Source: a virus
Taxonomy: Duplodnaviria; Heunggongvirae; Uroviricota; Caudoviricetes
DNA: 51,015 nt
Virus record (IMG/VR): IMGVR_UViG_2721755676_000003
Location: 1-51,015 of that record
Direction: 5' to 3' (one strand)
A model generated the notes under the pieces. It had not been told where the DNA came from, searched no databases, and saw only the letters and a list, made by a program, of their open reading frames with translations. Position 1 is the stretch's first letter. The number at the start of each line of letters is the position of its first letter. The translations under genes and the position numbers were made by a program. This document shows, piece after piece, positions 6,333-51,015 of the stretch.

Positions 6333-7265
6333 TTAGTTAAGACTTTTAATCATATAGTTACGTCTAGAGATCTTTAATCTGTCATTATGAATTTCTGTAA
6401 CGCTAGCAACCATTGATACGTGTGAGCCTACTTTAAATCTTGACTGTATTTCACTAAGCATATCAATAGGATATGATGCCTTTATCTTTCCGTCAGCGTT
6501 CACCACTTCGAGTTTGCCATACATAGAGAGCAGTGATAGCTCACCTGTGATAATTTCATTCCACGGTTTGGATATTTCCGTGAAAGCTAACCTTTTTGTG
6601 AGCCTATCAATAGCTTCTTTGTTTAAGGAAACCGAACGCCTACCTTCACTTAACGGTCCGATCCAAGATAATTCTAGTGCTAAGCCATTTCGCTCGCACT
6701 CTTCTACAATGTTTTTAAGGTTATGCGTTGAATTCGACCCAATTTCAGCAAGTTTAGAAATAAATGAATCTTCGTCAGTGGCCTCTAGTACTGAGAAAAT
6801 TTCTTTTACAGCATGGCTAGAAACCGTATCAACCAGTTCACATGCCCCTGTGGAGAACGTTACGGCTAGCTTTGTTGAACCAGGCCTCAAATCAGCCAGT
6901 CTCATATCTAGAGACTGCTTTATCCCTACAGGTACCTTGCGTGAGTCTTTTCCTGATGAAATCCGATGTACGGCTTTTTGAACTAGGCCAGCAAGGTTTC
7001 CAGAAATGACAGAAAGTAATTCCAGAGGCATAGTTCCTGCGTCAACAAGAAAACCTTTGAACCTTAACTCCATGAAATCTTGGAGCGGGTGCTCTATCTC
7101 AGCAGATCTCAGTTCAGCCCTCAAATCGCTTAAATGGGAATCTAAGCTGCGCGCTAAAATTCTGTCGGCAAGAGTCATTTCATGAGCAGGGCCGATTTTG
7201 TTCATACGATCCTGAATGAACGCAATCCTTTGTTTTAATGGTATAAATTTTGGCTCTGTGCTCAT
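6333..7265 (-). CDS. Uncharacterised 310-aa protein, second gene of NTase-led operon
   Basis: 310-aa ORF; start ATG overlaps upstream gene stop (ATGA coupling); no motif I can assign; soluble. Confidence 0.6.
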   Translation of the reverse strand: MSTEPKFIPLKQRIAFIQDRMNKIGPAHEMTLADRILARSLDSHLSDLRAELRSAEIEHPLQDFMELRFKGFLVDAGTMPLELLSVISGNLAGLVQKAVHRISSGKDSRKVPVGIKQSLDMRLADLRPGSTKLAVTFSTGACELVDTVSSHAVKEIFSVLEATDEDSFISKLAEIGSNSTHNLKNIVEECERNGLALELSWIGPLSEGRRSVSLNKEAIDRLTKRLAFTEISKPWNEIITGELSLLSMYGKLEVVNADGKIKASYPIDMLSEIQSRFKVGSHVSMVASVTEIHNDRLKISRRNYMIKSLN

Positions 7266-7735
7266 ACTACAACCCTCGCTAAACCTTTTGGCGTTTCCTC
7301 TCTATCGTATCCAAAGCACCCTCGCCAATACATCCTGTCGTTTGTATAATCAGACTTTGGATCCCCTTTGAAAAGAGGTAAAAGGTCAATATGATAATTT
7401 AACTTTATAAAATCCCTATCCAAGAGACTTTCAACCTGAGGGGCAAACATTATAGGAATGGCATTTATAGCATCAAAATCCATAACAACTAGTATATCGA
7501 CATCATCGGGATCTAGTTTTTCAGTTGTAAATGAGCCGTCTACCCAAATTTCCAGAAAGCAATTAAATTGCTTATTAAGAACGCGCAAGTTGGTAATTAA
7601 CTGTATGAAATTACAGTATAGCATGGATCTACGAGTTGACTTAGGAAAACTATCAACACATATTTTTTTCAACTGGTTGTCATCAATATCATGAAAACCT
7701 GGTGTGAAGAGTGGCGGATAGCATTTCTTAGACAT
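7262..7735 (-). CDS. Small nucleotidyltransferase-fold protein (Pol-beta/minimal NTase signature)
   Basis: 157-aa ORF containing hG[GS]-x9-DxD-hhhh signature (IWVDGSFTTEKLDPDDVDILVVMDFD) typical of minimal nucleotidyltransferases. Confidence 0.5.
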   Translation of the reverse strand: MSKKCYPPLFTPGFHDIDDNQLKKICVDSFPKSTRRSMLYCNFIQLITNLRVLNKQFNCFLEIWVDGSFTTEKLDPDDVDILVVMDFDAINAIPIMFAPQVESLLDRDFIKLNYHIDLLPLFKGDPKSDYTNDRMYWRGCFGYDREETPKGLARVVV

Positions 7736-7860: not shown

Positions 7861-8244
7861 TTAATCTTCTTGAGTACGAATCCGTCCCTTCATGTACTTC
7901 TCATACAGGTCATCTAGTTCTTTCAGACGAATCGCGAAGATGCGGAGCATGTTCTGCTGCTCTTCTTCCGGTAACTGGCGGTAGAGCTCCAGCAAGCGCT
8001 GTTCGTCCGGCTTAAGTCCATCTTTTTCACCAACGTCCTCACCGAGTAACCAGGCGACAGAAATGCCTACAGCGTCGGCTATGGCCAGTGCCGATTTCTT
8101 ACTAATCACGCCTTTTTTGAACCAGCCGTTTACGGCCTGAGGAGTGACTCCAGCTATTCGTGCCAAGTCTGCTTTTGTAACGCCGCGATCAGTGATCTCA
8201 GTAAGGCGCTCTACCAGAACGAGGTTGGGTTCTTCTTTTCTCAT
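7861..8244 (-). CDS. Prophage repressor, HTH (XRE/Cro-CI family, RacR-like, no peptidase domain)
   Basis: HTH segment GVTKADLARIAGVTPQAVNGWFKKG; divergent from cro-like gene across an operator-rich intergenic region; start chosen at MRKEE (alternative ATG at 8274); the ORF-track start at 8346 is implausible because it abuts the cro start. Confidence 0.7.
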   Translation of the reverse strand: MRKEEPNLVLVERLTEITDRGVTKADLARIAGVTPQAVNGWFKKGVISKKSALAIADAVGISVAWLLGEDVGEKDGLKPDEQRLLELYRQLPEEEQQNMLRIFAIRLKELDDLYEKYMKGRIRTQED

Positions 8245-8250
8245 AGGGTC

Positions 8251-8319
8251 ATTGTAAATATTTGGTTTATACATACAATAAATCCAAGATTTGCATGAAA
8301 TATAAATCTGTGGTTTACT
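8251..8319. promoter_or_regulatory. OR-like operator/promoter region (two TAAAT-N4-GGTTTA repeats; PR candidate -35 TTGCAT, -10 TTTACT)
   Basis: Repeats at about 8255-8269 and 8304-8318; the second overlaps the candidate PR spacer/-10 upstream of the cro-like gene RBS AGGAG. Confidence 0.4.
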
Positions 8320-8346
8320 TTTGCTGTTAATAAGCAGGAGAAGCAC

Positions 8347-10875: not shown

Positions 10876-11712
10876 CTAATGATGATAAATACCATCGTCT
10901 AAAGGGGGACCTTCAGCAGTAACCCCCGTGATTCTACTTGGCGGTTCAAAGATGGCCTCACCAAATATCGCATCAAACTCTGCTTTGGTGACTGATAAGT
11001 ATTGCAAGATGAGCTCTAGCAGCTCTCTGTACGTATCACAATGCCATTCAATGTGAGGACATATTTGGGAGAGAACTCTGGTCTTAAAATCATCCAGATT
11101 TTTTGGGACTTCCAGCAAGTTACCAGTGTTTAATGCTTTCGACATAAACTTGTAATTGAGCATGGAGAGAACCATTACTGATACACCTTTCTCTTGCCTT
11201 AACTGATCGAACTTCTCTTGTGCTTGAAGGCTTAGCTTGGCGTATTCGCGATCTCGTTTTGAGTTGACTGGTTCGACGTACTGAAGCGGTTCGTCTGCAG
11301 CATCACCGATACGTGGACAAAAGTATCTATTCCACCAAGCCTCAAAATACCTTTTTTGGAACTCTAGGTATGTCATCCCAATAATATTGGTGTTTTGAGT
11401 GTACTGTTTAGCACCCTGCTGAAGCCCGTGCTTTGAAATAATAAATCCAATGTTAGCCCCGGTTTCATGCATTACCGTGGTGAACGAATGGACCACCGTC
11501 TGAGGTATAGAACTACCCCAGTTTTTGCATTCCACAATGTATCTGATTTTGTCCACGCTCCTAACATCTGTAGCTAGAACATCCACATTCACCGAGCCAC
11601 GCGGTGTTTCTAAATCGACCTCGACTTCTGCAAACAAGCCAACATTACGGAATATACGTTGGACCCCTGTCTGGAGGTCTTGCCAGTTTTCTGGTAATGG
11701 GTCATCGATCAC
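10876..11712 (-). CDS. Mrr-like restriction-endonuclease-fold protein (PD-(D/E)xK) with unknown C-terminal domain
   Basis: N-terminal VDVLATDVRSVDKIRYIVECKNW (D...ExK) typical of Mrr_cat nucleases; opposite strand to the replication genes. Confidence 0.5.
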   Translation of the reverse strand: MIDDPLPENWQDLQTGVQRIFRNVGLFAEVEVDLETPRGSVNVDVLATDVRSVDKIRYIVECKNWGSSIPQTVVHSFTTVMHETGANIGFIISKHGLQQGAKQYTQNTNIIGMTYLEFQKRYFEAWWNRYFCPRIGDAADEPLQYVEPVNSKRDREYAKLSLQAQEKFDQLRQEKGVSVMVLSMLNYKFMSKALNTGNLLEVPKNLDDFKTRVLSQICPHIEWHCDTYRELLELILQYLSVTKAEFDAIFGEAIFEPPSRITGVTAEGPPLDDGIYHH

Positions 11713-12046
11713 TTTTACTTTTCCTATGCACTATCCGCATGCTTTTAAGACTACTTGAAGACACAAACGTCGTCATCCACTAAAAGGTTCAAATTTGAGA
11801 TGATAGTTCGTTTCTGGTATGAAACGAACCGTTTGAAGAGCCGAGTGCTCTGCTAAGAGCCAGGAGTGGACGTTCTCAAAGCATTGCTTACATCGAGGAT
11901 GTATTAATCAACGGGGTGCAGGTCAATTGATCCATAAAAGGTTGAATGCTCTATACTAAGCACTAGTAAAAAACATTGCACAACATACACTTAAGGTTTA
12001 AATTGCTTATCACCAAAACATAAATTTAATCATAGGCTGATGGCGT

Positions 12047-13510
12047 ATGCTAAAGGTAATTAAAAAAGGTATTGGCTTCAATAAAACAGAAAAAAGATTG
12101 ATTGAATTAGCTAATAATGCCTTTATAGGTTTGTGGTCATATCCTAATGTTTATAGTGATGAGGGTTTTGCAAAAAATAAATCGGGTAAAGAAGTGTGTG
12201 ATTTATTAGTGGTTTTTGAAAATAATGTAATTTTGTTTTCTGATAAAGACATTAAGTTTAATGATGAAATTGATATCCATATTGCATGGAAAAGATGGTT
12301 TAGGAGAGCAGTAATCGAATCAGCGACTCAACTGCATGGAGCTGAAAAATTTCTAAAAGAGCAAAGTGACAGATTATTTCTTGATAAAGAGTGTAAGGAG
12401 AGGTTTCCAATAACAATTGACAATAAGATGCGCTTTTTTTTGATCGCAGTAACTAGCAATAGCGCAATTCCAGCTTTCAATTACTTTGGTCGTATCGCGG
12501 AAGGAAGTTCTGGAACTTTAGTAAATTGCTTTCCCTTTGGAATAAAGGAAAGTATGGAGCAACCTTTTACTGTTGGAGATTTGTATCCTGATAAGACATT
12601 TATCCATGTTTTAGATGAACTATCGTTAAAATTACTATTCTCTGAGCTGGATACAATTACTGACTTCGTTGACTATTTAAAAGAGAAAGAACGAGTCGTG
12701 AGGACAGGTTTTCTTGGATTAAGTCCTGGTGAGGATGACACACTGGGTGCCTACTTGATCGGGCATGGATTAATAGTAGATGAAAAGAAGGTGCCAAAAA
12801 ACTCGTTTGTTCGAATTGCAGAGCATGAATGGACTGAACTAAAAAAATCGCAATTATATGAATATTATACAGCTCTAAAAAAAGGTAGCTATTTTTGGGA
12901 TGAAACAGTACAACGTTTTTCCGATTCCATATTAAATGCAACTGTTGGTCTAGGTAAGGAAAATGACTTTCTTAGTCATGAGGAAACATTAAGACAATTA
13001 GCCTCTGAAAGCAGAGAATCAAGATATTATTTATCTAAATCATTCTTGGATAAATTCAAGCAAGTTCCTTCTGACAGAAGAAGCTCCAGAATCGTAGAGT
13101 CTTTAGATGAAAAAGGAAAGTTTTATATTTTTTTGTTTTTTCCGCGTGAAAAACATTTATCATATGAGGAATATAGAAACGAACGTTTTTCTTGCATTCA
13201 AATGTATGCGTTAACAGCTAAATATAAATACCCACAAATAAAAAAACTCATAGTCATTGCTACTGAAAGTAAAGACTCCGAAGGTCGTTCAGAGGATGTG
13301 GTATTTTGTCGATTTGATAACCCCCTTTCAAAAGGCGAACGTCTGTTTGTACAATCAGTGATGCACGAATATAGCATACTTACTGATTTCATTCCAAAAC
13401 CGAACAATAAATTAAATTTGTCACCGATAGTTAAAAGTGACAAGAAACCTGGAAGGAATGAACCTTGTTTTTGTGGATCTGGTATAAAATATAAAAAATG
13501 CCATGGATAG
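12047..13510 (+). CDS. SEC-C motif protein of unknown function (AT-rich cargo)
   Basis: 487-aa ORF ending in CFCGSGIKYKKCHG (SEC-C metal-binding motif); strongly AT-rich relative to phage backbone. Confidence 0.6.
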   Translation: MLKVIKKGIGFNKTEKRLIELANNAFIGLWSYPNVYSDEGFAKNKSGKEVCDLLVVFENNVILFSDKDIKFNDEIDIHIAWKRWFRRAVIESATQLHGAEKFLKEQSDRLFLDKECKERFPITIDNKMRFFLIAVTSNSAIPAFNYFGRIAEGSSGTLVNCFPFGIKESMEQPFTVGDLYPDKTFIHVLDELSLKLLFSELDTITDFVDYLKEKERVVRTGFLGLSPGEDDTLGAYLIGHGLIVDEKKVPKNSFVRIAEHEWTELKKSQLYEYYTALKKGSYFWDETVQRFSDSILNATVGLGKENDFLSHEETLRQLASESRESRYYLSKSFLDKFKQVPSDRRSSRIVESLDEKGKFYIFLFFPREKHLSYEEYRNERFSCIQMYALTAKYKYPQIKKLIVIATESKDSEGRSEDVVFCRFDNPLSKGERLFVQSVMHEYSILTDFIPKPNNKLNLSPIVKSDKKPGRNEPCFCGSGIKYKKCHG

Positions 13511-13955
13511 AAAATTAGCATAATTCTATTAACTCATTGCCATTATCTTGACAAAACTAAATGGAAACTTGTCATATTTATTTCTTGAAAATATTTAATT
13601 ACTGGCTGTAGCAACTTTAACTTAGTGCGGGCATAGCTATGAATCTCCGATTGTACTGGCAGGGGGCTACAACTTTAGATGACTCACTCCCATCTTCAAC
13701 AAGCTAGCTGGCTGCCTTGTGTTGCGAGGATTCGTAATGATGATGTCAGTTTTGTCCGCTTCTGGCAAGAGGCGGACGAGATGGCTAGGCTTAAGACCTG
13801 CTGAAAGCCAGGAGCTGACATCACTACAACTTTTAATGCTAACTTCACTTAAAATAATTTTGGAATTTGCACATATGGGTTATATAAGTAAATCATCGCA
13901 ATGAGTTCTATGCGATAATTTTATATTTAGTCCCCATCTTTATCGGATGGTTCAT

Positions 13956-14729
13956 CTAAGCTTTAACTCGCCTGACAAGAGTTTTACTGCAACCTATACT
14001 GAGAAGGTGGCGTCGAAGATTTTTATCAATATGACTATCCAACGTGGTAATTAAAAACACTATATCCTCAATAACCTTAACAACATCCGAGCTTGATATT
14101 TTAGTGAGGCTTACCTTTGGTCTGTCACAATTATGGATACAATCATGTCTCCTCTGAATTAGCGAAGTATATCTGTTAGTTAGCTTTTCTAACATAGATT
14201 TCCGTTTTTTTTCTTTATCCTCTTTGGATAACTTTTTGTAAGCTGTTGGAGTGGTTCCCATAAGACGATGCTTCGCTGACTTATTTATCAACCAGTCCTC
14301 CATCATCGGCTTTGTTAATATTTTGTTTTTTTCATCCATGATATGATTGAACAAATCCTTAATTTTATCGATTGAAAGTACGTTATCTTTTTCAATCAAG
14401 TCACGTGCTGCATTTCGCCATTTCCAATTCGAAGTTGTATTCTGAGCATTCACGATAGAATTTATAGGTAACTTCAATGACCTTATCTTTGGGCTTAATT
14501 TGACATTGCTGTCAATGCTTTTTGCAATTAGGATTTTTGATAACACATCTGCAAATGCATCACAAAAATATGCATCAAGTGCTCCAATCGCAATCATCCA
14601 AGAGGCTCTATATATATCATCCTTTAGAGTCGATATAGGTAATGAATCAGCATGAGCTATAAGGTCTTTTGCTCTATTAATATCCTGATTAAAATGACTT
14701 AACGCTGTGCTTGGCATATAACACCTCAA
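13956..14729 (-). CDS. HEPN-like protein (candidate abortive-infection RNase)
   Basis: 257-aa ORF with C-terminal R-x4-H motif (LIQRRHDCIHNCDRPK) in a helical, lysine-rich protein; AT-rich. Confidence 0.4.
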   Translation of the reverse strand: MRCYMPSTALSHFNQDINRAKDLIAHADSLPISTLKDDIYRASWMIAIGALDAYFCDAFADVLSKILIAKSIDSNVKLSPKIRSLKLPINSIVNAQNTTSNWKWRNAARDLIEKDNVLSIDKIKDLFNHIMDEKNKILTKPMMEDWLINKSAKHRLMGTTPTAYKKLSKEDKEKKRKSMLEKLTNRYTSLIQRRHDCIHNCDRPKVSLTKISSSDVVKVIEDIVFLITTLDSHIDKNLRRHLLSIGCSKTLVRRVKA

Positions 14730-15040
14730 AATAAATGATTTATATGGTTAATTGGAAATGCAAAACTTAAATTTTAGTTTATACCGTTTGTTGCCAGAAT
14801 ACGATATATTCACAGATTCTAGACCATTAACATTGGCACTACAGCCAGATAATGAGTTTGAACGTACACCGTAGTATACTTTCTGATCTGCCCACCCCAA
14901 AAAAATTAGTACTATCTGGATTACCACAGTCCGCTCTTGTCACCCAAATGTTATTTTACCTTAATGACATTAGATTTCATTTGGATCAGATTGCCGCAAC
15001 TATCAGTGTGCGGCAAGTAGCTGAAGCATTCATAGAGTAT

Positions 15041-16285
15041 TTATGGGTCAAGGAGGGATTTAAACTGAGATATGGGATAGTCATATCGTTCGTTATAGAA
15101 TGCCGCAAGCTTGCAGTATTCTGCTAGGTGAGCATCTGGCCTGTATGGGACAATCGCTCCTTCAATCGATAGCTCAATACTATTAGTGACAATCAACATC
15201 AAGGCATGATCTTTAGTAAATAGTTGTTCTGAAAGTAAACGATATTTATTTTTAGGCTCGGAAATAGTTTTGAATGATTCGAACGTGTCATTAATAAACT
15301 GAAGTGCCAATGCTCCAGGTCGTTTTCCTGTCAGTTGTTTTTTTAACGCCCGCTTAGATACTTTCTCAACCTCTTTCCAAATTTGTACATCACCTGCGGA
15401 TACGACCCGAATTCCCTTTAATCGATGCTCAGAGTCATGGCAGGCCACTAACGCTGCTGTGGAGCCATGGAGTGTTTGTGCTGCATTGAAGACTACATTC
15501 TCATCAGTTTTATCTCCCAATAATGGGCAAAATTCTTCAACAACAGAAAACTTTTCGCTGTGTATATCGTTGCCTTGAGTTTCAATCTCGTCTACTAGGC
15601 GAGCCATAAATTCTTTGAAGCTTTTATCGTTCTTAGGCACAGGTTCCGTCAAAATGATGGTCAAGATACTTGCGAATCCTTCCTTTGCAGTGAGAAGTCT
15701 GTCGAGCGAGATTTTTTCCAGCAAAGCACCAATCAAGCGATGCCCATCTGCAAGACTAACAGCAAAACCTTTATCACCTGCGAAGGATTTGCACTCAAGC
15801 TCAAATGGAGGAAGCCCTTGAGGTGGGTAGACTAGAAGGTCAAAGGTCTCCTCGCCTTTACTTTCCTCTGGCCATTCAATGGAGCACCCCCTGGAGATTA
15901 GTGTTTTGGCCATATATAACTCGTACTGCAAAGCGCGCATGTCGCTGGCAAGCTTGAACGCACCCTCGAAACGTTTTTTGAGTTCCCTGGGGCCTGGTTC
16001 ACCTCTTTCCACTGCTTCACACAGTTCCACCACTCGCTGCACAAATAACATTGTCTGGAACATTGTATTCCATTCGTATCCCGCATTTAATGCATACTGA
16101 TTTCTATCCCAAAACGTCAAACCGAATGCTACTGAGTTTTCTAATTCTTCCTGTCCACCACGTCCAGCAAATTGATTTGAAAGTAACTTTATGTCCTGAA
16201 CGACCTTCAGCCAAGGCTTTAAAGGGAAAAGCTTGACTAAACGGTTATAAATATCAGGGAAGCTAAGCATAATGAGGGGCATCAA
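15041..16285 (-). CDS. Hypothetical 414-aa protein with PD-(D/E)xK-like motif
   Basis: ETFDLLVYPPQGLPPFELECKSF (D...E-x-K) suggests a nuclease fold; otherwise unrecognised. Confidence 0.45.
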   Translation of the reverse strand: MMPLIMLSFPDIYNRLVKLFPLKPWLKVVQDIKLLSNQFAGRGGQEELENSVAFGLTFWDRNQYALNAGYEWNTMFQTMLFVQRVVELCEAVERGEPGPRELKKRFEGAFKLASDMRALQYELYMAKTLISRGCSIEWPEESKGEETFDLLVYPPQGLPPFELECKSFAGDKGFAVSLADGHRLIGALLEKISLDRLLTAKEGFASILTIILTEPVPKNDKSFKEFMARLVDEIETQGNDIHSEKFSVVEEFCPLLGDKTDENVVFNAAQTLHGSTAALVACHDSEHRLKGIRVVSAGDVQIWKEVEKVSKRALKKQLTGKRPGALALQFINDTFESFKTISEPKNKYRLLSEQLFTKDHALMLIVTNSIELSIEGAIVPYRPDAHLAEYCKLAAFYNERYDYPISQFKSLLDP

Positions 16286-16790: not shown

Positions 16791-16810
16791 CACTGTACAT
16801 GCATACAGTG
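16791..16810. promoter_or_regulatory. LexA (SOS) box upstream of dinI-like gene
   Basis: Perfect palindrome CACTGTACATGCATACAGTG (CTGT-N8-ACAG) about 20 nt upstream of the dinI-like ATG. Confidence 0.55.
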
Positions 16811-16828
16811 ATTCGTTGCGGAGGGAAA

Positions 16829-17053
16829 ATGAAAATCGAGCTAACCATTGATCGCATGAAGAAACTTCCTGATGGAGCTATACCTGCGCTCGAGTCAGAA
16901 CTGCTCGAAAGACTCAGCAAGCAGTTTGATGATTGCCAGCTTACGATTAGGCGTGCCAGTAATGATGGTTTGACTGTTTTCTGGGGCGACAAGAAAGAGG
17001 TCGAACATATCGTGCAGGAGACCTGGGAAAGCGCGGACGAGTGGTTTTATTAA
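16829..17053 (+). CDS. dinI: DinI-family protein
   Basis: MKIELTIDR...VQETWESADEWFY matches recalled E. coli DinI (MRIEVTIAK...LQETWESADDWF); start at internal ATG with RBS GAGGGA. Confidence 0.8.
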   Translation: MKIELTIDRMKKLPDGAIPALESELLERLSKQFDDCQLTIRRASNDGLTVFWGDKKEVEHIVQETWESADEWFY

Positions 17054-17159
17054 TCGCGTGAATTTCACTGGAGCAGTTTCAAAGAGTATCGCTGTTTGCG
17101 TTCCCCTGGCTGTTCCCGATTACTGTTTACCGCGTCATTAAGTCGCTCTGGGGGAAATA

Positions 17160-17402
17160 GTGTGTAGTGCAGATGCCTTTAATGCAGATGATCAATGGTA
17201 CGACGTGGTCAGAAGGGCCGATAAAGCAGTTATCTATAGCTTCCCGGCTGAAGGGAGATATCTGGTTTATCGAGTAAATGGAATAGTTTCATTACGACCG
17301 TTACTCGAAGAGGAAGAAATCTTCACTCTCAACGGGTTCATGCAATTTGCAAAACGGCTTGGGTACCGAATTACACCACCGTCTGATATTATTCTTTCAT
17401 AG
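17160..17402 (+). CDS. Hypothetical nin-region protein
   Basis: 80-aa ORF with GTG start and RBS GGGGGA; no motif recognised. Confidence 0.35.
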   Translation: MCSADAFNADDQWYDVVRRADKAVIYSFPAEGRYLVYRVNGIVSLRPLLEEEEIFTLNGFMQFAKRLGYRITPPSDIILS

Positions 17403-43555: not shown

Positions 43556-44193
43556 GCGGATTCGAAGTTTACAACAGCGACGGAAAACTGCTGGTGGATT
43601 CACAAAACAGATCGACCCTTTTTTATGATCAGCGCACGCTGAGTGGCGTCACCGATAAAGGCGCCTACCGCGTTAACAGCCCGTTTGGTGATGGTAGTAC
43701 GCTCGGCTTTACGCAGCAGTCATTCTGGAATGACGGCCGTTTAAGGTGGCTGCAGCTGGGCACGAACAAATACGGTTTTCCTGGTGCTGATATGCTTGAA
43801 GATAATGCTGGTAGCATGATCCGAACTGCGCGAAATATTGGCTTGCAGAGTGGTTATCTCGATGTGTTTGACAGTGCCGGCAGCCTTATCTGGAGCGCTG
43901 CATCAGCCTCAAAGATGCCGAGAGTTGTTGGGTTCTTTGACGTACCAGCTAACTATGACCTGCAGAACAATACCTTTTCAGTCAGTTTAAGCTTCAACCC
44001 TTGGATTCTGGTAAACAACTGCCCGGGAAACCTCAGCGATGATGGTACGGTTGTCGGGTATTCTGGTGTGGTGCTCAAATGGACTGGCTCTCAACTGCAG
44101 GGCAGATACATTTCAAATAACCAGCGCAGCTGGAGCCAGACGTTTCAGGGGCGGGGCCTAAGAATCCCCATCGCTCAGTTTGTTGGCATTTGA
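43552..44193 (+). CDS. Hypothetical tail-associated protein
   Basis: 213-aa ORF, ATGA-coupled. Confidence 0.45.
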   Translation: MSGFEVYNSDGKLLVDSQNRSTLFYDQRTLSGVTDKGAYRVNSPFGDGSTLGFTQQSFWNDGRLRWLQLGTNKYGFPGADMLEDNAGSMIRTARNIGLQSGYLDVFDSAGSLIWSAASASKMPRVVGFFDVPANYDLQNNTFSVSLSFNPWILVNNCPGNLSDDGTVVGYSGVVLKWTGSQLQGRYISNNQRSWSQTFQGRGLRIPIAQFVGI

Positions 44194-44520
44194 GACGGGA
44201 GGAACGTGCGGATAATGAGTCGCGATCATATCTTGTTTTACGCCCTTTGCTGAATTGAAGCGATAAACCACATCCAGCTTATCCGTTTTTTTATAACAAA
44301 TATTACTTAACCGTTTTTTAATATGTCGGCTGAATATTCCGTTGCTGCTGTCTAAAATAACTTCCACCTCTCTGGTGGCACAGTCGATATTAACGTGAAT
44401 ATCGCCACCCAGCGATAAACGAGCGGCATCAACGGGATAGTCCATCTGGAATGCGTTATCTGTGTGTTTGTTCGTACATCCAGCCAACAGCAAAAGCGCT
44501 GCAGCAAATAAAAGTTTCAT
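44158..44520 (-). CDS. Lipoprotein (candidate receptor-blocking / superinfection-exclusion moron)
   Basis: Signal peptide plus lipobox MKLLFAAALLLLAGC; opposite strand; AT-rich; 3' end overlaps the upstream convergent ORF by 36 nt. Confidence 0.5.
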   Translation of the reverse strand: MKLLFAAALLLLAGCTNKHTDNAFQMDYPVDAARLSLGGDIHVNIDCATREVEVILDSSNGIFSRHIKKRLSNICYKKTDKLDVVYRFNSAKGVKQDMIATHYPHVPPVSNANKLSDGDS

Positions 44521-44646
44521 TTCAACATTCCTGTTTATGCGGGAACTTCCATTTTATTTGAGTTTAAAAAATAGTCAGATTGGTATGAGCGATCAATTTT
44601 AAATGATTGATCGCTTTTAACGATCTTTATTATCGTGAGGTAGTTT

Positions 44647-45912
44647 ATGCTTTATAACACCGGCACCATCGCAATTAACGGAAATACCGCAACCGGTACT
44701 GGCACAAACTGGACGGCACCAGTCAGCCAGGTTCGCGCTGGCCAGACGATTATCGTGATGTCTAACCCGGTGCAGCTGTTCCAGATTTCATCTGTGGACA
44801 GCGCCACGTCAATGACGGTTACGCCTGCCGCTTCCCCGGCGCTGAGCGGCCAGAAGTACGGCATTCTGATATCAGACAATATCTCTGTAGACAGCCTGGC
44901 GCAGGCGATGTCGCAGCTCATCAAAGAGTATGATGAGAATATCGGCGCCTGGGAGACGTTCGCTACCACATCCGCAAATCAGACTATCACCGTTACTATC
45001 AACGGATCTTCCGTAAATATTCCGGGCATAGGTGCACTTGCCAGAAAGGGGGCGAATAGCGATATCACGGAGCTGAAAGGGCTCACTACTGCGCTTTCTA
45101 TTGCACAGGGTGGCACCGGGGCAACGAAGGCAGAAGACGCTCGCACAAACCTCGGTTTAGGAAGTAGCGCGACGAAGGACGTCGGAACTGCCTCCGGGAA
45201 TGTCATGCAAGTTGGGGCGGGCGGTTTTTTGGTTAGTACGCCTACATTGATAGCAGAAAACAACAGCCGCTATCCTTCAAGCTTTATGCGATCTGGTGGA
45301 GGGAGTGGGAAAATTGGATTCGGCTCTGGTATTTATTGCTCCTACGATGACTCCATTTGCTTTCATCTCCATATTCAGGGTAATGGTGAACTCCATTATA
45401 GATATTTGAATGCTGGCCTTATTACCTATGACTACGTTGCTTACTCTACAGGAAACACCACAAAGGCGAGCGATGGCACCCTAAAAGCTGCGTCCCCGGT
45501 TGCCCGTATCGTAGCGAGCCAGGAAGCCTGCCAGCGCGTTGATATAGCGGAGGATGGATTCGCATGGTGCGGCTGTGGAACGGCGAACTCTGAGGCGGAG
45601 GGAATAACTCTTTCTCGCCTCGACGTAGGTGTTTACGTGATCGCGGGTTCGGCAGGTCTGGCGTCAGAGGGATGGCAACTGCTGCCGCCAATGGACCCTG
45701 GCGGAATGGGAGAGCTGGGTGTAGTTGAGGCAGAGCAAACCGAGAACGGCGAGCTGACAATCCGCCTGTTTAAGCGCAGATACATGCTGAGCGATGACGG
45801 AGAGATGATCAAAACCAAAGGAGAGCTGATGGATGTTCCGGCGAACAGCTGGATCGATGTTCGCCTGGATATGCCCGCAGATTCACTGTTTAACCAGCGA
45901 ATGAGTCAGTAG
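44647..45912 (+). CDS. Side tail fibre protein (constant N-terminal part plus currently fused variable C-terminal segment)
   Basis: 421-aa ORF, RBS GAGGT; Gly/Thr/Ser-rich fibre repeats; internal gix-like recombination site at about 45140-45165. Confidence 0.7.
   Translation: MLYNTGTIAINGNTATGTGTNWTAPVSQVRAGQTIIVMSNPVQLFQISSVDSATSMTVTPAASPALSGQKYGILISDNISVDSLAQAMSQLIKEYDENIGAWETFATTSANQTITVTINGSSVNIPGIGALARKGANSDITELKGLTTALSIAQGGTGATKAEDARTNLGLGSSATKDVGTASGNVMQVGAGGFLVSTPTLIAENNSRYPSSFMRSGGGSGKIGFGSGIYCSYDDSICFHLHIQGNGELHYRYLNAGLITYDYVAYSTGNTTKASDGTLKAASPVARIVASQEACQRVDIAEDGFAWCGCGTANSEAEGITLSRLDVGVYVIAGSAGLASEGWQLLPPMDPGGMGELGVVEAEQTENGELTIRLFKRRYMLSDDGEMIKTKGELMDVPANSWIDVRLDMPADSLFNQRMSQ
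45140..45193. repeat. Left inverted repeat with gix/hix-like crossover site (..CACAAACC TC GGTTTAGGAAGT..)
   Basis: Matches recalled gix consensus AAACC-TC-GGTTTACAGGAA; inverted partner at about 46539-46580; inner arms about 18/20 identical (gcgacgaaggacgtcggaac versus gcaacgaaggacgttggaac). Confidence 0.5.
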
Positions 45913-46578
45913 GCTGAGGCTTAGTGTTTCCCTCTAATGCGCTGACGCGGGTTGCCAGCGCTTTGATTGCCGCCAGCCCATCGAGCAACATTGGTGTCTG
46001 ATCGAGATGCAGCAGACCGCCAATTTGCTTTACATATTCTGGGTCGATTTTCTCTATTTGCTGAGAGATAACCCCGCGCCGTGGGGGTTGAGTTTCATCA
46101 TCTTTAAAGGTGAAGTGCTTGAATTCCATCCGGCAGATATTCAGCAATGCCTCTTCCAGATCGAGGTCATCACCGATGTTTTTCATAGTTCTGTCGGACA
46201 CCGCCGAAGTTAAAATTTCTTTCCACGGTGCCCAGGCATTGGTATTAAAACCTCTGTAAAAGAACCGCCCGGCATCTGTTTGCGTGGCATAAGGCAAGAT
46301 AAATTGAGTCGATGCACCGCTGCTGCCTACAATTCGGACATAGTTTTGAATATACCCGTATCCGCTTGCCGCTGGTGGGTTTACAGCGGTAGTGAAATTG
46401 ATGAGGTTAGGAAAAACACCAGGGTTCCGCGCATCATTCAAATTGATGGTGTTTGAAGGTAAAGCCGAGTCAATCTGGAAGAACCTGTAGGCGTCCACCG
46501 GCCCCCCAAGTCCACCGACAACCTGAACGTTTCCTTCGCTCGTTCCAACGTCCTTCGTTGCTGATGTTCCTAAACCTA
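45890..46578 (-). other. Alternative tail-fibre C-terminal segment (S'v-like), promoterless, within invertible segment
   Basis: Minus-strand ORF whose 5' end begins at the right inverted repeat with ...LGLGTSATKDVGTSEGNV..., paralleling the plus-strand ...LGLGSSATKDVGTASGNV...; the ORF-track N-terminal extension is antisense to the invertase remnant. Confidence 0.5.
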
Positions 46579-46580
46579 GA
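46539..46580. repeat. Right inverted repeat / gix-like site
   Basis: Reverse complement of ..GTTCCTAAACC TA GAGGGAGTTG.. gives GGTTTAGGAAC plus the shared inner arm. Confidence 0.45.
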
Positions 46581-46792
46581 GGGAGTTGATTGTGGAGCGC
46601 ACCCGGGCAGGTCTGGCTGCAGCTCGTGAGAAATGGCGAATCGGCGGCAGGCGTCCGAAGCTTACCCAGGAACAATGGGATCAGGCGGGCCGACTTATTG
46701 CGAACGGCCTGGACAGGAATCAGGTAGCGATAATTTATGACGTTGCTGTATGCACGCTTTATAAAAAATTCCCTCCTTCAAAAAAGGCTTAA
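46580..46792 (+). pseudogene. DNA invertase (Gin/Pin/Hin serine recombinase) remnant: C-terminal HTH domain only
   Basis: RELIVERTRAGLAAAREKWRIGGRRPKLTQEQWDQAGRLIANGLDRNQVAIIYDVAVCTLYKKFP matches the C-terminal roughly 70 aa of Gin/Pin; the frame opens exactly at the right gix-like site; no N-terminal catalytic domain upstream. Confidence 0.6.
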
Positions 46793-46929
46793 ATCTGCTC
46801 ACATAGAGTTTAGGCAATAAAATTTACAAAACTCGTAATCCGAAGCGACATAGAAACTTATAAACGAAACGGCGAAGCTTTAAACAATCAGGATAGGTCC
46901 TCTGTCTTGCATGCATACCCAAATGAAAC

Positions 46930-46949
46930 TACTGTATATAAAGACAGTA
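46930..46949. promoter_or_regulatory. LexA (SOS) box upstream of umuD
   Basis: TACTGTATATAAAGACAGTA (CTGT-N8-ACAG) about 15 nt upstream of the umuD ATG. Confidence 0.7.
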
Positions 46950-46964
46950 CAAAAGGTGTGCACT

Positions 46965-47384
46965 ATGGAATTTATCAGGCCTGCGGAACTGCGTGAAATT
47001 CTCGCTCTCCCGCTTTTCAGTGACTTAGTTCAGTGTGGTTTCCCAAGTCCAGCAGCTGATTACGTTGAACAACGTATCGATCTCAATGAGTTACTTGTCG
47101 CTCACCCGAGCTCAACGTATTTCGTCAAAGCCGCGGGCGATTCTATGATCGAAGCCGGGATCAGCGACGGTGATCTGCTGGTAGTGGACAGTTCCAGGAC
47201 TGCTGAGCATGGTGACATTGTCATCGCTGCGGTGGAAGGGGAGTTCACTGTTAAACGCCTGCAGCTGCGCCCGACCGTGCAACTCAATCCTATGAACAGC
47301 GCCTACAGTCCGATTGTTGTTGGCAGTGAAGACACACTGGACGTGTTTGGCGTTGTTACTTTCATCGTTAAATCTGCGAGCTGA
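46965..47384 (+). CDS. umuD: UmuD (Pol V accessory subunit, LexA-like S24 self-cleaving peptidase)
   Basis: [72 protein letters not shown]... near-identical to recalled E. coli UmuD; includes the Cys-Gly cleavage site and Ser/Lys dyad. Confidence 0.9.
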
Positions 47385-47386
47385 AC

Positions 47387-48655
47387 ATGTTTGCGCTCTG
47401 TGATGTGAATTCGTTTTACGCATCATGCGAGACGGTGTTTCGGCCCGATTTGAGAGGGCGGCCAGTAGTTGTTCTCTCGAATAATGACGGCTGCGTAATC
47501 GCGCGCAGCGCCGAGGCCAAAGCCGCCGGAATTACCATGGGAGAGCCTTTCTTTAAGCAAAAGGATCTATTCCGGCGCGCTGGTGTTGTTTGCTTCAGCA
47601 GTAACTACGAGCTGTACGCAGACATGTCGAACCGGGTAATGACGACGCTTGAGGAAATGAGCCCCCGCGTCGAAATTTACAGTATCGATGAAGCTTTTTG
47701 CGACCTGACTGGCGTTCGCAACTGCCGGGACCTGACTGACTTCGGCAAAGAAATTCGTTCTACGGTTCTAAAGCGTACGCACCTGACGGTTGGGGTTGGA
47801 ATTGCGCAGACAAAAACGCTCGCTAAGCTGGCCAATCACGCCGCGAAGAAGTGGCAGAGGCAGACGGGTGGAGTTGTTGATTTGTCCAATATCGATCGCC
47901 AGCGTCGGTTATTGGCAATTGTGCCTGTGGAGGATGTCTGGGGCGTCGGCAGGCGCATCAGTAAGAAGCTAAACGCCATGGGCATCAAAACGGCTCTGGA
48001 TCTCTCAGAACAAAGCACATGGATTATCCGTAAACATTTTAACGTGGTACTCGAGCGAACGGTCCGGGAGTTGCGCGGAGAGCCTTGTCTTGAGCTGGAG
48101 GAGTTTGCGCCGGCAAAGCAGGAAATCGTCTGCAGCCGATCGTTCGGCGAGCGCGTCACGGACTATGAGCAGATGCGTCAGGCTATCTGCAGCTATGCGG
48201 CGCGTGGCGCCGAAAAGCTTCGCGGCGAGCATCAGTATTGCCGTTTTATCTCGGCGTTCGTTAAGACGTCACCTTTTGCCCTGAATGAGCCATATTACGG
48301 TAATAGTGCGTCCATGAAGCTTCTTACTCCCACTCAGGATTCCCGCGACATCATCAACGCCGCGGTAAAGTGCCTGAACAAAATCTGGAAGGACGGCCAC
48401 CGCTATCAAAAAGCAGGAATCATGCTTGGGGATTTTTTCAGCCATGGTGTGGCTCAGCTCAACTTGTTCGATGAGAACGCGCCGCGCGAAGACAGCGCGC
48501 AACTGATGCAGATCCTTGACCAGCTCAATGCCAAAGGAGGAAAGGGCACACTCTACTTTGCAGGGCAGGGAATTCAGCAACAATGGCAGATGAAGCGAGA
48601 AATGCTTTCTCCGCGGTATACGACCCGCTTCCAGGATTTATTAATTGTTAAATAA
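47387..48655 (+). CDS. umuC: UmuC (Y-family translesion DNA polymerase V catalytic subunit)
   Basis: [41 protein letters not shown]... canonical UmuC N-terminus; 422 aa. Confidence 0.92.
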
Positions 48656-48723
48656 ATGCAGGACATTATGGTCAAAATAAAGTATCTTATTCAGGCACTT
48701 ATAAATACTTAAATGGAATTGAT

Positions 48724-49131
48724 ATGTTAAAACCTATTCTCGCATTAGCAGTTCTTACCTTATCTGGGTGTGCAATTATCCAAGAGCCTCCAAAACATGG
48801 CACTCCTGACGCTGTATATACGACTAAGAGCGATGCAAAAAGCGTTGCATTATGCATTGCTGATGTCTTTGCAGATTACGACCCTTACATCAAAGCTCGC
48901 TATAAAGAAGAATTCTGGGGTTATAAAATTAATTATTCCGCCGGGCAATATGGCGAAGCTGAAATTTACAAGAAAAATAACGTTACCACTGTGAATTATT
49001 TTGGTCAGAATAATTCAGACAAGAAAATGGTAAAGCATCTTAAAGACGGCATCCAAAAATGTGTAAATAAGGTGTACGACATGTCTCCAGTGGGTGGTAA
49101 GCAGCCAGATGGAAGCGTAAAACTCTGGTAA
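48724..49131 (+). CDS. Lipoprotein of unknown function
   Basis: Signal peptide plus lipobox (LAVLTLSGC); AT-rich. Confidence 0.55.
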   Translation: MLKPILALAVLTLSGCAIIQEPPKHGTPDAVYTTKSDAKSVALCIADVFADYDPYIKARYKEEFWGYKINYSAGQYGEAEIYKKNNVTTVNYFGQNNSDKKMVKHLKDGIQKCVNKVYDMSPVGGKQPDGSVKLW

Positions 49132-49145
49132 TATCTGTCAGGATA

Positions 49146-49817
49146 TCACTGAATATTATCAATCAATTCAGCACCCTGATTTTTTGGATTATCAACGGCA
49201 CGCGACACTGCGTGCCAGATAAACTTGTCGGCGTCCACTGTGCCGTCGGCCGCTATCTCTTCAGCTTCTTTCCCGCCTATATCCTGCCGCATCCATTCGC
49301 GAGCTGCTTCCGGCGACAGAACCAGTGGCCGGCGGTCGTGAATTTCGACCAGTCCTTTGTCAGCTGCAGACGTCACTATCAGAAAACCTTCTGCTTCATC
49401 GCCGCGCTCAAACGGTGTGCTGCCGATCGCCGCCATGAAAATCGGCTGTCCGTCGGCGCGGTGAATGAAGTAGGGCTGCTTCTTGTCACCTTCCTTCTTC
49501 CATTCGAACCATCCATCCGCAAAGCAGATCGCCCGGCCATGCTGCCAGAGGGGCTTAAACATTCGACTGGTGGCCGCAGTCTCGACACGCGCGTTAATCA
49601 GTGGTGGTTTATCCCACCACCCGGGCGCGTAACCCCAGAAAACCGGATCAAGATGCAGTTGCTCGTCGCGTTCGCTCAGCAACAGAACTTTGGTACCGGG
49701 CGCGACGTTGTACCGGCCAATCGGCTCAGGGTCATATGCTATGTCGCGATCGGCTTCATCGGCCAGGTAAGCAAGATATTCTTCACGGGTTTGGGCTTGT
49801 GCAAAACGTCCACACAT
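49146..49817 (-). CDS. SOS-response-associated peptidase (SRAP, YedK/HMCES family)
   Basis: Begins MCGRF (catalytic Cys2), 223 aa; family hallmarks recalled. Confidence 0.8.
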   Translation of the reverse strand: MCGRFAQAQTREEYLAYLADEADRDIAYDPEPIGRYNVAPGTKVLLLSERDEQLHLDPVFWGYAPGWWDKPPLINARVETAATSRMFKPLWQHGRAICFADGWFEWKKEGDKKQPYFIHRADGQPIFMAAIGSTPFERGDEAEGFLIVTSAADKGLVEIHDRRPLVLSPEAAREWMRQDIGGKEAEEIAADGTVDADKFIWHAVSRAVDNPKNQGAELIDNIQ

Positions 49818-50194
49818 AGAAACCTCCAGTCAGTAAGACTGAAAGTATAGGGCAGGGAGAAAAAACAGGTGCGCACCGAAACATCATGATTTTGAAACAG
49901 GGGCATGATGATGGAAGTCAGAGTGCCGGTAAAGCGGGTCGTTGAGAAACTGGAAAGAGCTACGCAAAGTTAAAGTGTTAGGCTATTTACGTTCCGAAGC
50001 GGTTATCGTTTATTAATTGAGCGAAATACGAATATTTAGAGGGAGTGATGGGGCATTTTTGAGAGATAACCTTCCCCAAAACGATACGCAACCTACTGAA
50101 TAGCATAAGGTTCTAGTAAGGGTGAAAATGGTGCAAATCAACGCCTCGATTATAGGTTAACTTATTGTATATAAAGAATAAAAACGGTAGTTGA

Positions 50195-50452
50195 ATAGTA
50201 TGCTTCGCCCATATTTTTGGTGGCGGATATGCTGCAGGTTATTACGCTTATCTGTGGACGCAAATGTTGGCCGATGATGGTTACCAGTGGTTTGTTGAGC
50301 AGGGCGGATTAACGCGTGAAAATGGGCAGCGTTTTCGCGAGGCGATCCTTTCCAGAGGTAACAGCGAAGATCTGGAACGCCTGTATCGACAATGGCGCGG
50401 TAAGGCTCCTCAAATTATGCCGATGCTGCAACATCGTGGCTTGAACATATAA
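50195..50452 (+). pseudogene. dcp: Orphan 3' fragment of dcp (peptidyl-dipeptidase, M3 family)
   Basis: Frame open only from about 50195, encoding ...HIFGGGYAAGYYAYLWTQMLADDGYQWFVEQGGLTRENGQRFREAILSRGNSEDLERLYRQWRGKAP..., the conserved M3-peptidase C-terminus; preceded by an in-frame stop and AT-rich non-coding DNA. Confidence 0.65.
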
Positions 50453-50496
50453 ACACCACCAATGGCTGTCCTGGAGATATCGCCAGGCCAGCCTGG

Positions 50497-51015
50497 TTAT
50501 AGCAGTAATTGCAGCAGCTGGGCGAGGGCAAACCTCACCGCTAAAGCTAATACCGTTTCGCAGTCGCCAGCAAAATGCATAACCGCAGTATAGGTCTGGC
50601 CTTTAATATGCCACGCGAACCAGACGGTACCCGCTGGCGTACCATCTTCACCGCCCTCCGGTCCGCCGTAGCCGGTAATGGCAATACTGACATCAGCTTC
50701 CGCACGCTCTATGGCACCGGTTGCCATTTCTGCTGCCACTTTCTCACTCACCGCAGAATATCGTTCAAGAGATTGCTGGCTTACGCTGAGGATTTTCATC
50801 TTTGCCTGATCGGTGAAAGTAACAAAGCCTGCACCGTAAAATTTGGGTGTATCTTCAGCTGCACACAGGGCGCTAGCCAACTTACCGCCGGTGCATGATT
50901 CGGCGGTAGTTAAGCGTAATTGATCCGCGATAAGTCTTTGACTCAACGCGGATGTCAGGTTTTCAATAGTGTCGGTATCTGCAAGTTGTACAATTTTATC
51001 GCTATTAATGTTCAC
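50497..51015 (-). CDS. CinA C-terminal-domain / PncC-like protein (YdeJ-like); start at or beyond window edge
   Basis: ATAESCTGG motif and overall CinA-C pattern; ORF reaches the window end with a GTG at the last codon, so the 5' end may be truncated. Confidence 0.65.
   Translation of the reverse strand: MNINSDKIVQLADTDTIENLTSALSQRLIADQLRLTTAESCTGGKLASALCAAEDTPKFYGAGFVTFTDQAKMKILSVSQQSLERYSAVSEKVAAEMATGAIERAEADVSIAITGYGGPEGGEDGTPAGTVWFAWHIKGQTYTAVMHFAGDCETVLALAVRFALAQLLQLLL

Follow-up and report, generated by a model that had tools for sequence, protein, structure and literature searches.

We analysed the right arm of a prophage contained in a 51,015-nt stretch of viral DNA (IMG/VR record IMGVR_UViG_2721755676_000003; Caudoviricetes), which is referred to as a whole as the window. 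The cluster of interest, at 46930-49817, consists of a predicted LexA operator, homologues of umuD and umuC encoding the two subunits of DNA polymerase V (Pol V), a lipoprotein gene, and a gene of the SRAP family related to yedK of E. coli. An original prediction, made from the sequence of the window, had described this cluster as SOS-controlled cargo of the prophage. Protein families were assigned with Pfam, PHROGs, and PADLOC, and RNA families with Rfam. PHROGs families exist for all four cluster proteins.

Results

Gene content of the cluster

The umuD homologue (46965-47384, plus strand) encodes a protein of 139 amino acids, the self-cleaving accessory subunit of Pol V, with matches to Peptidase_S24 (PF00717, 2.6e-30) and to phrog_811 (6.8e-59). 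A longer reading of umuD starting at 46911 is not likely. The protein aligned without gaps to K-12 UmuD at 80% identity and retained both the cleavage site C24/G25 and the S60/K97 dyad. The umuC homologue (47387-48655, plus strand; 422 amino acids) encodes the Y-family catalytic subunit and matched IMS (8.4e-43), IMS_C, DUF4113, and phrog_1268 (7e-201). Its product, likewise gap-free against K-12 UmuC (84% identity), kept the catalytic residues D6, D101, and E102, the steric gate Y11, and the beta-clamp motif QLNLF at residues 357-361. With the umuD stop codon ending at 47384 and the umuC ATG following at 47387, the two genes are adjacent and laid out as one transcription unit. Full-length reading frames, domains, and conserved residues together bear out the earlier claim that umuDC is intact.

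In gene order, protein lengths (139 and 422 amino acids), cleavage site, catalytic residues, and clamp motif the window operon equals the chromosomal umuDC of E. coli. The two copies differ in sequence, being only 80% (UmuD) and 84% (UmuC) identical, and in location: K-12 umuDC sits between hlyE and dsbB, whereas the window copy lies in a prophage behind a different leader of ~110 bp. Pol V orthologues are known from other mobile elements, among them mucAB of pKM101, impCAB, samAB, rumAB of R391/SXT, and humD of phage P1.

The SRAP gene (49146-49817, minus strand; 223 amino acids) is the last gene before attR, the right attachment site. Its match to PF02586 (1.4e-51) covered positions 1-211 of the 214 in the profile, and it also matched phrog_1599 (1e-90). 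The protein aligned over its full length with the structure sequences of E. coli YedK (6KBS, 6NUA, and 2ICU; 1e-135), the prototype of bacterial SRAP proteins, whose human homologue is HMCES. Cys2, which directly follows the initiator methionine, Asn75, Glu105, and His160 are common to the two proteins. The MCGRF start and the opposite strand agreed with the original prediction, which had also called the gene divergent. This last point was wrong: the gene is convergent, tail-to-tail with umuDC and the lipoprotein gene, and 14 bp separate the stop codons of the lipoprotein and SRAP genes.

Ratios of nonsynonymous to synonymous substitution rates (dN/dS) were ~0.02 for umuD and for umuC in comparison with diverged relatives, and 0.04-0.07 for SRAP in comparison with diverged copies. 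Because dN/dS stayed at 0.02-0.07 across diverged copies, we consider these three genes to be maintained by selection and free of decay.

SRAP-UmuCD gene neighbourhoods, as well as SRAP genes in temperate phages and prophages, were described in 2013 (Aravind et al., PMC3765255), and the association of SRAP with translesion-polymerase genes named in the original prediction is thus a published one. As in that neighbourhood, SRAP stands beside umuD-umuC in the window. The window differs from it in that SRAP is convergent and not a member of the umuDC operon, that a hypervariable slot separates the two, and that no LexA box was found before SRAP. The biochemistry of YedK is treated in PMC6821365 and PMC9436759. 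K-12 yedK belongs to the yedD-yedE-yedF-yedK locus, far from umuDC, whereas the SRAP gene of the window is prophage-borne and convergent with umuDC. In K-12 (2,007,677-2,012,780) yedK lies ~2 kb from intG, a remnant of the cryptic prophage PR-G, in the order yedD-yedE-yedF-yedK-yedL-yedN-intG.

The lipoprotein gene (48724-49131, plus strand; 135 amino acids) is AT-rich and fills the slot between umuC and SRAP. Its GC content is 37-38%, compared with 52-58% in its neighbours. A signal peptide and the lipobox LSGC, which fits the pattern [LVI][ASTVI][GAS]C, confirmed the lipoprotein gene named in the original prediction: the N-terminus reads MLKPILALAVLTLSGC, and L13, S14, G15, and C16 were nearly invariant in 10 homologues. 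In E. coli, the sorting of lipoproteins follows the +2 rule. The residue at +2 is Ala, and under this rule sorting to the outer membrane is predicted. The predicted fold was confident (pLDDT 80) and resembled only generic small alpha/beta domains. Comparison with described superinfection-exclusion and defence families (Cor or Llp type, PADLOC) gave no match in sequence or fold. A second lipoprotein gene (44158-44520, minus strand; 120 amino acids, lipobox LAGC, phrog_25729) is embedded between tail genes and tail-fibre gene. Neither of the two lipoproteins had a PADLOC match, nor did UmuC or SRAP.

Homologues of the cluster lipoprotein are rare. A search of 5.8 billion proteins found just 11, in Enterobacter and Lelliottia. 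Two IMG/VR loci and a Lelliottia prophage carry it in the same slot, while in Enterobacter kobei (L010, 8001-8408) the homologue is chromosomal and lies between yedE and yedD. Together with intG near K-12 yedK, this last position may point to some common history of the yedK neighbourhood and the phage module. Between the window and one IMG/VR locus (L013) the lipoprotein gene is 99.5% identical in nucleotide sequence; the corresponding values are 82% for umuD, 88% for umuC, and 93% for SRAP. Since the flanking genes are only 82-93% identical, we interpret the near-identity of the lipoprotein gene as a recent exchange of the lipoprotein cassette.

Predicted LexA operator and umuDC promoter

The predicted LexA operator (SOS box) is a 20-bp palindrome, TACTGTATATAAAGACAGTA, at 46930-46949. 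The window and 100 shuffles were scanned for sites with at most three mismatches to the LexA consensus TACTGT(AT)4ACAGTA. TACTGTATATAAAGACAGTA was the sole such site in the window, and none of the 100 shuffles yielded one. A position weight matrix (PWM) was trained on 28 E. coli SOS boxes from the literature, whose median score was 20.0 bits; 30 shuffles reached at most 19.0 bits. With this matrix the box before umuD scored 23.6 bits and outranked everything else in the window. The original prediction had placed a near-consensus LexA box ahead of umuD and had named PWM scoring as a check, and the claim held in both analyses.

The operator differs from that of K-12 umuDC by a single change at a spacer position. 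An alignment of the regions before umuD covered seven loci (the window, K-12 umuDC, Escherichia phage PHB10, the prophages of E. coli XJ55 and D9, Salmonella phage vB_SosS_Oslo, and an Enterobacter plasmid); across them the LexA box varied at one spacer position and was otherwise invariant. In IMG/VR, at least 599 stretches of viral contigs matched in a scan with UmuC, and locus counts given here refer to the best 80 of these, with UmuC relatives at 94-98% protein identity (L013 included). A CTGT-N8-ACAG box lies just upstream of umuD in 78 of the 80, and 58 of those 78 boxes match the operator of K-12 umuDC exactly.

Upstream of the box lies a non-coding leader (46822-46929, plus strand), conserved in the seven-locus alignment. 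This leader of ~110 bp is common to the phage and plasmid copies of umuDC, which marks them off from K-12, where it is absent. An Rfam scan of 44000-51015 (E up to 1) found no RNA family, and the umuD leader thus corresponds to no known RNA there. A scan of 46500-50500 for consensus promoters and terminators gave no more hits than shuffles did and none at gene starts, for which reason the umuDC promoter was instead derived from the alignment with K-12. Its -35 element is TTGCAT (46907-46912), within the leader, followed by a 17-nt spacer and the -10 element TACTGT (46930-46935); the LexA box covers the -10 and the start region. The TTG of the -35 was invariant in all seven aligned loci, 17 nt before TACTGT. 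From this layout, which is alike in the chromosomal umuDC of E. coli (-35 TTG, 17-nt spacer, TACTGT, and 20-bp LexA box), we infer a sigma-70 type promoter overlapped by a LexA operator of the high-affinity type. The elements correspond to what we take to be the mapped promoter of K-12 umuDC.

The PWM search found no LexA box before the lipoprotein gene (best score -0.9 bits) or before the SRAP gene (best score 3.8 bits). The name SOS cluster, used in the original prediction, therefore holds for umuDC and not for the lipoprotein and SRAP genes.

Position of the cluster in the prophage

The cluster lies between a remnant of an invertase gene and a fragment of dcp, in agreement with the original prediction. 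The remnant (46586-46792, plus strand) comprises 68 codons of a Hin/Pin-type DNA invertase and retains only the C-terminal helix-turn-helix domain (HTH_7, 1e-13; positions 138-204 of the 254 in the phrog_125 profile). An invertase C-terminus was found at the same distance 5' of umuDC in 26 of the 80 IMG/VR loci. On the other side, the SRAP gene is followed by the non-coding phage arm of attR, 386 bp of AT-rich DNA (49818-50203; GC ~40-45%). A BLAST comparison of the window with L013 aligned 46925-49967, and the homology of the common module stops near 49967. The bacterial side of attR begins at 50204 with the last 249 nt of native dcp (50204-50452, plus strand), after which comes ydeJ (50497-51015, minus strand).

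Comparison with 5426 complete E. coli genomes gave a sharp boundary. The dcp/ydeJ end of the window matched 5416 of them, solely from 50204 on. In the prophage-free genome GE3 the genes ydfG-dcp-ydeJ-ydeI are contiguous, and umuDC, the lipoprotein gene, and SRAP are all absent from this site. The core chromosome thus resumes only at 50204, and the genes of the cluster are cargo inside the inserted element and not native chromosome, as the original prediction had proposed. DNA related to the cluster was found in eight of the 5426 genomes, four with umuDC (74-86% identity) and four with a match to SRAP alone. Two genomes with umuDC plus SRAP, XJ55 and D9, were inspected: in both the cluster lies beside yciB, at the right end of other prophages, in the order tail genes, acyltransferase, hypothetical gene, umuD, umuC, an optional hypothetical gene, and SRAP.

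Megablast of the integrase region against the same 5426 genomes gave no match. By exact-protein look-up the same prophage was found in several draft or read-derived assemblies, and these contain attL (L093, 5141-5700). There, the integrase gene abuts a full-length dcp of 681 amino acids, whose last ~250 nt are supplied by the phage and are 80% identical to the native sequence; the break in homology corresponds to position 50204 of the window. A related integrase in a Klebsiella prophage (L006) also adjoins a full-length dcp. Because the phage supplies a replacement 3' end, dcp is not inactivated by the insertion. The truncated dcp fragment named in the original prediction is present at 50204; it is the displaced native 3' end of a gene that is rebuilt at full length at attL. 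The cluster is bracketed by attL and attR. A repeat search found no direct repeats flanking the cluster, which would mark a separate island, and no second integrase or recombinase was found.

Distribution among phages

Over the rest of the window the phage most closely related is PHB10, with 92-94% identity over 41-46% of each half; a search of one literature library found no paper about this phage. In the GenBank records of PHB10 and vB_SosS_Oslo, both deposited as genomes of isolated phages, umuDC lies between the tail-fibre genes and the integrase gene. PHB10 has SRAP as well, directly beside the integrase gene and with other genes between it and umuDC. Oslo has umuDC without SRAP, and in D9 the slot is empty. 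The umuDC copies of Oslo and PHB10 are likewise cargo of mobile elements, have the same LexA box, and share the placement after the tail fibres and before the integrase gene; their nucleotide identity to the window copy is 80-85%. The window phage differs from both in its integrase and attachment site (dcp), and in the lipoprotein cassette in its slot, which neither PHB10 nor Oslo has. Presence and content of the module vary among these related phages (Oslo, PHB10, D9), as expected of cargo that is not needed for the phage life cycle.

All 80 IMG/VR loci carry umuD. A homologue of SRAP was found downstream in 53 of them, each time on the opposite strand and convergent (53/53). Where at least 1.6 kb of sequence followed umuC, SRAP was present in 45 of 50 loci. 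Among the 53 contigs with SRAP, 20 stop exactly at its start codon, which makes SRAP the last viral gene called. The module occurs on different backbones with different flanks and belongs to a populous class of phage module that is already annotated. In a further genome (L098, 3596-7094) an invertase gene (157 amino acids, Resolvase domain), umuDC, an identical lipoprotein gene, and SRAP end a defective prophage of the Rac type, which carries recE, a helix-turn-helix repressor, Cro/YdaS, and YdaT and occupies a different chromosomal site.

A hypervariable slot between umuC and SRAP

The interval between umuC and SRAP is hypervariable. In the 48 IMG/VR loci with a full-length SRAP gene it ranged from 2 bp to ~2.9 kb, and its open reading frames (ORFs) fell into ~40 unrelated clusters. 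The proteins encoded there include a KAP-type NTPase, a caspase, a CAP12/Pycsar-type TIR protein, DUF7380/DUF4209, YaaC-like, and DUF2971 proteins; toxin-antitoxin-like pairs and cold-shock proteins are also found. Of 10 representative slot proteins, five had a PADLOC match to defence or candidate-defence families: PDC-S49 (KAP-like NTPase), caspase, TIR effector, PDC-S39, and PDC-S31. A literature search, limited in depth, did not find a description of a umuC-SRAP hotspot among the papers that it listed.

Prophage induction and other features of the window

A second locus under predicted LexA control lies in the same prophage at 16791-17402 (plus strand). It starts with the LexA box CACTGTACATGCATACAGTG (16791-16810; 19.0 bits in the PWM), followed by a dinI homologue (16829-17053, plus strand; phrog_189 DinI, 6.2e-24) and a GTG-start ORF of 80 amino acids (17160-17402, plus strand; phrog_340), a candidate antirepressor; ninB is the next gene. 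The candidate repressor (7861-8346, minus strand) has a helix-turn-helix motif and no S24 cleavage domain. In Gifsy prophages a LexA-repressed dinI-antirepressor operon drives induction while the repressor stays uncleaved (Lemire et al. 2011, PMC3121763). The window shares the layout of that operon: after the replication genes come a LexA box, dinI, and a short ORF that starts with GTG, and the repressor is without a cleavage domain. It differs in that no irsA homologue was identified in the window, ninB standing there instead. By its place in this layout the short ORF is a candidate counterpart of GfoA or GftA. By this analogy, induction probably is Gifsy-like and runs through the dinI-antirepressor operon at 16.8-17.4 kb. 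With predicted LexA boxes at both loci, it is plausible that umuDC and prophage induction answer the same signal.

Just downstream of the repressor gene, two genes (6333-7735, minus strand) matched the PADLOC candidate defence system PDC-M63 (B, 9e-44; A, 9e-40). Within the PDC-M63A ORF, ~117 nt past the start, is a strong LexA-like palindrome, AACTGTATGAAATTACAGTA (7599-7618), whose score of 21.6 bits was higher than any from the shuffles. Four ORFs of 278, 487, 257, and 414 amino acids, on both strands, form a block at 10876-16285 that separates the replication genes from the dinI locus; the PADLOC run gave no or only weak family assignments for them. The 487-amino-acid protein ends in a Cys/His motif, and its PADLOC matches to E2-type and PDC-S12 models were confined to the last ~30 residues (E ~1e-5). 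This block may be an accessory or defence island.

The invertase remnant adjoins an invertible tail-fibre segment, bounded by 38-nt inverted repeats (45151-45188 and 46542-46579), in which alternative C-termini of the fibre are encoded on opposite strands. The tail-fibre switch is probably frozen, as the invertase is reduced to its helix-turn-helix domain.

Discussion

Our data make it very probable that the region at ~46.82-49.97 kb is an accessory (moron) module in the right arm of a temperate phage, a lambdoid siphophage that has PHB10 as a relative and dcp of E. coli, at its 3' end, as integration site, and that it would provide a LexA-repressed second Pol V together with a YedK-type shield for abasic sites. 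The module has three parts: umuDC under its predicted LexA operator, a variable slot with the recently acquired lipoprotein gene, and a convergent SRAP gene of the yedK type that lacks a LexA box.

The mechanism we propose follows the established Pol V and YedK pathways of E. coli. In a resting lysogen, LexA would keep umuDC repressed. Upon DNA damage, RecA filaments would promote the self-cleavage of LexA, and UmuD and UmuC would be made. UmuD would then be cut at C24/G25 to UmuD', and with UmuD'2C the DNA of host or phage would undergo error-prone translesion synthesis. SRAP would form a covalent thiazolidine link through Cys2 to abasic sites in single-stranded DNA and in this way shield them from breakage and mutagenic bypass. 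The lysogen would gain a further Pol V, diverged from its chromosomal counterpart (80-84% identity), and an additional YedK, and the phage would bring its own kit for lesion tolerance to hosts possibly without such means. In this scheme the binding of LexA, the expression of the genes, the activities in DNA synthesis and crosslinking, and any advantage to the host or the phage are predictions from sequence.

Three other explanations of the cluster were considered. One takes it to be native chromosome at dcp-ydeJ that merely abuts the prophage. The position of the cluster, at the extreme end of the element and beside host genes, would fit, as would the 80-89% identity of its products to the chromosomal UmuD, UmuC, and YedK of E. 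coli. Such an origin is refuted by the empty site in GE3 and by the core match of 5416 genomes from 50204 only. Cluster-related DNA was found in just eight of the 5426 genomes, with the two inspected hits elsewhere and inside other prophages; K-12 has umuDC and yedK at unrelated loci; and attL and attR bracket the cluster. We regard native origin as hardly conceivable. It is also very improbable that the cluster is a small integrative island in its own right, lying in tandem between prophage and dcp, outside the phage genome and not packaged with it. That the module at 46925-49967 recurs on different backbones and flanks shows that it moves as a unit, which would fit an island. Yet the cluster has neither a second integrase or recombinase nor flanking direct repeats, and the records of PHB10 and Oslo hold umuDC, in PHB10 also SRAP, between tail fibres and integrase gene. 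SRAP is typically the last viral gene, as in the 20 of 53 contigs ending at its start codon, and to its right the window has a phage-specific attR arm set directly against the crossover point in dcp.

A third possibility is that the module is carried but inert or decaying, a silent paralogue locked by LexA that hitch-hikes in a partly degraded arm. The adjoining invertase is truncated, and the host, from what is generally known of E. coli, very probably owns umuDC and yedK already. Against this stand four intact ORFs with catalytic residues kept, dN/dS values indicating long-term purifying selection, and an operator retained in 78 of 80 loci; we therefore judge an inert module unlikely.

The reading of the region as an accessory lesion-tolerance module under SOS control has points against it. 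The truncated invertase beside the module signifies some decay in the right arm. A simple scan gave no consensus-grade promoter for any of the four cluster genes, nor did it find an intrinsic terminator after umuC or after the lipoprotein gene. The term SOS cluster would strictly fit umuDC alone, as the SRAP and lipoprotein genes are without a predicted LexA box. Pol V appears late in the SOS response, and lysis of an induced cell may come too early for the polymerase to matter; the beneficiary may be the host or the phage. The DinI homologue of the prophage could moreover damp the processing of UmuD.

Because no terminator was found after umuC, the lipoprotein gene may be co-transcribed with umuDC. 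We conjecture that the lipoprotein is an SOS-inducible envelope factor, for instance in superinfection exclusion, and, also as conjecture, that the cargo of the slot has a role in defence or exclusion. A wider interpretation, which we put forward tentatively and which may well prove wrong, is that umuC and the convergent SRAP gene are conserved anchors on either side of a hotspot for hypervariable cargo, which lies at the right end in a widespread group of enterobacterial temperate phages, the lipoprotein gene of the window being one recently exchanged cassette. The umuC-SRAP slot is the most original element of this analysis; it is recurrent and could be mined for defence genes.

In principle nothing here is new: Pol V operons on plasmids and integrative and conjugative elements are classic, and phage copies have already been annotated. 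The practical value lies in a clean annotation of the right arm of the prophage. In a lysogen of this phage, Pol V operons, diverged from each other, and YedK-type proteins would each be present twice, and one of the two sets is horizontally mobile. An active prophage copy could supply Pol V to hosts without it and aid the replication of damaged phage genomes, and it could raise damage-induced mutagenesis, including that induced by quinolones and other SOS-inducing drugs.

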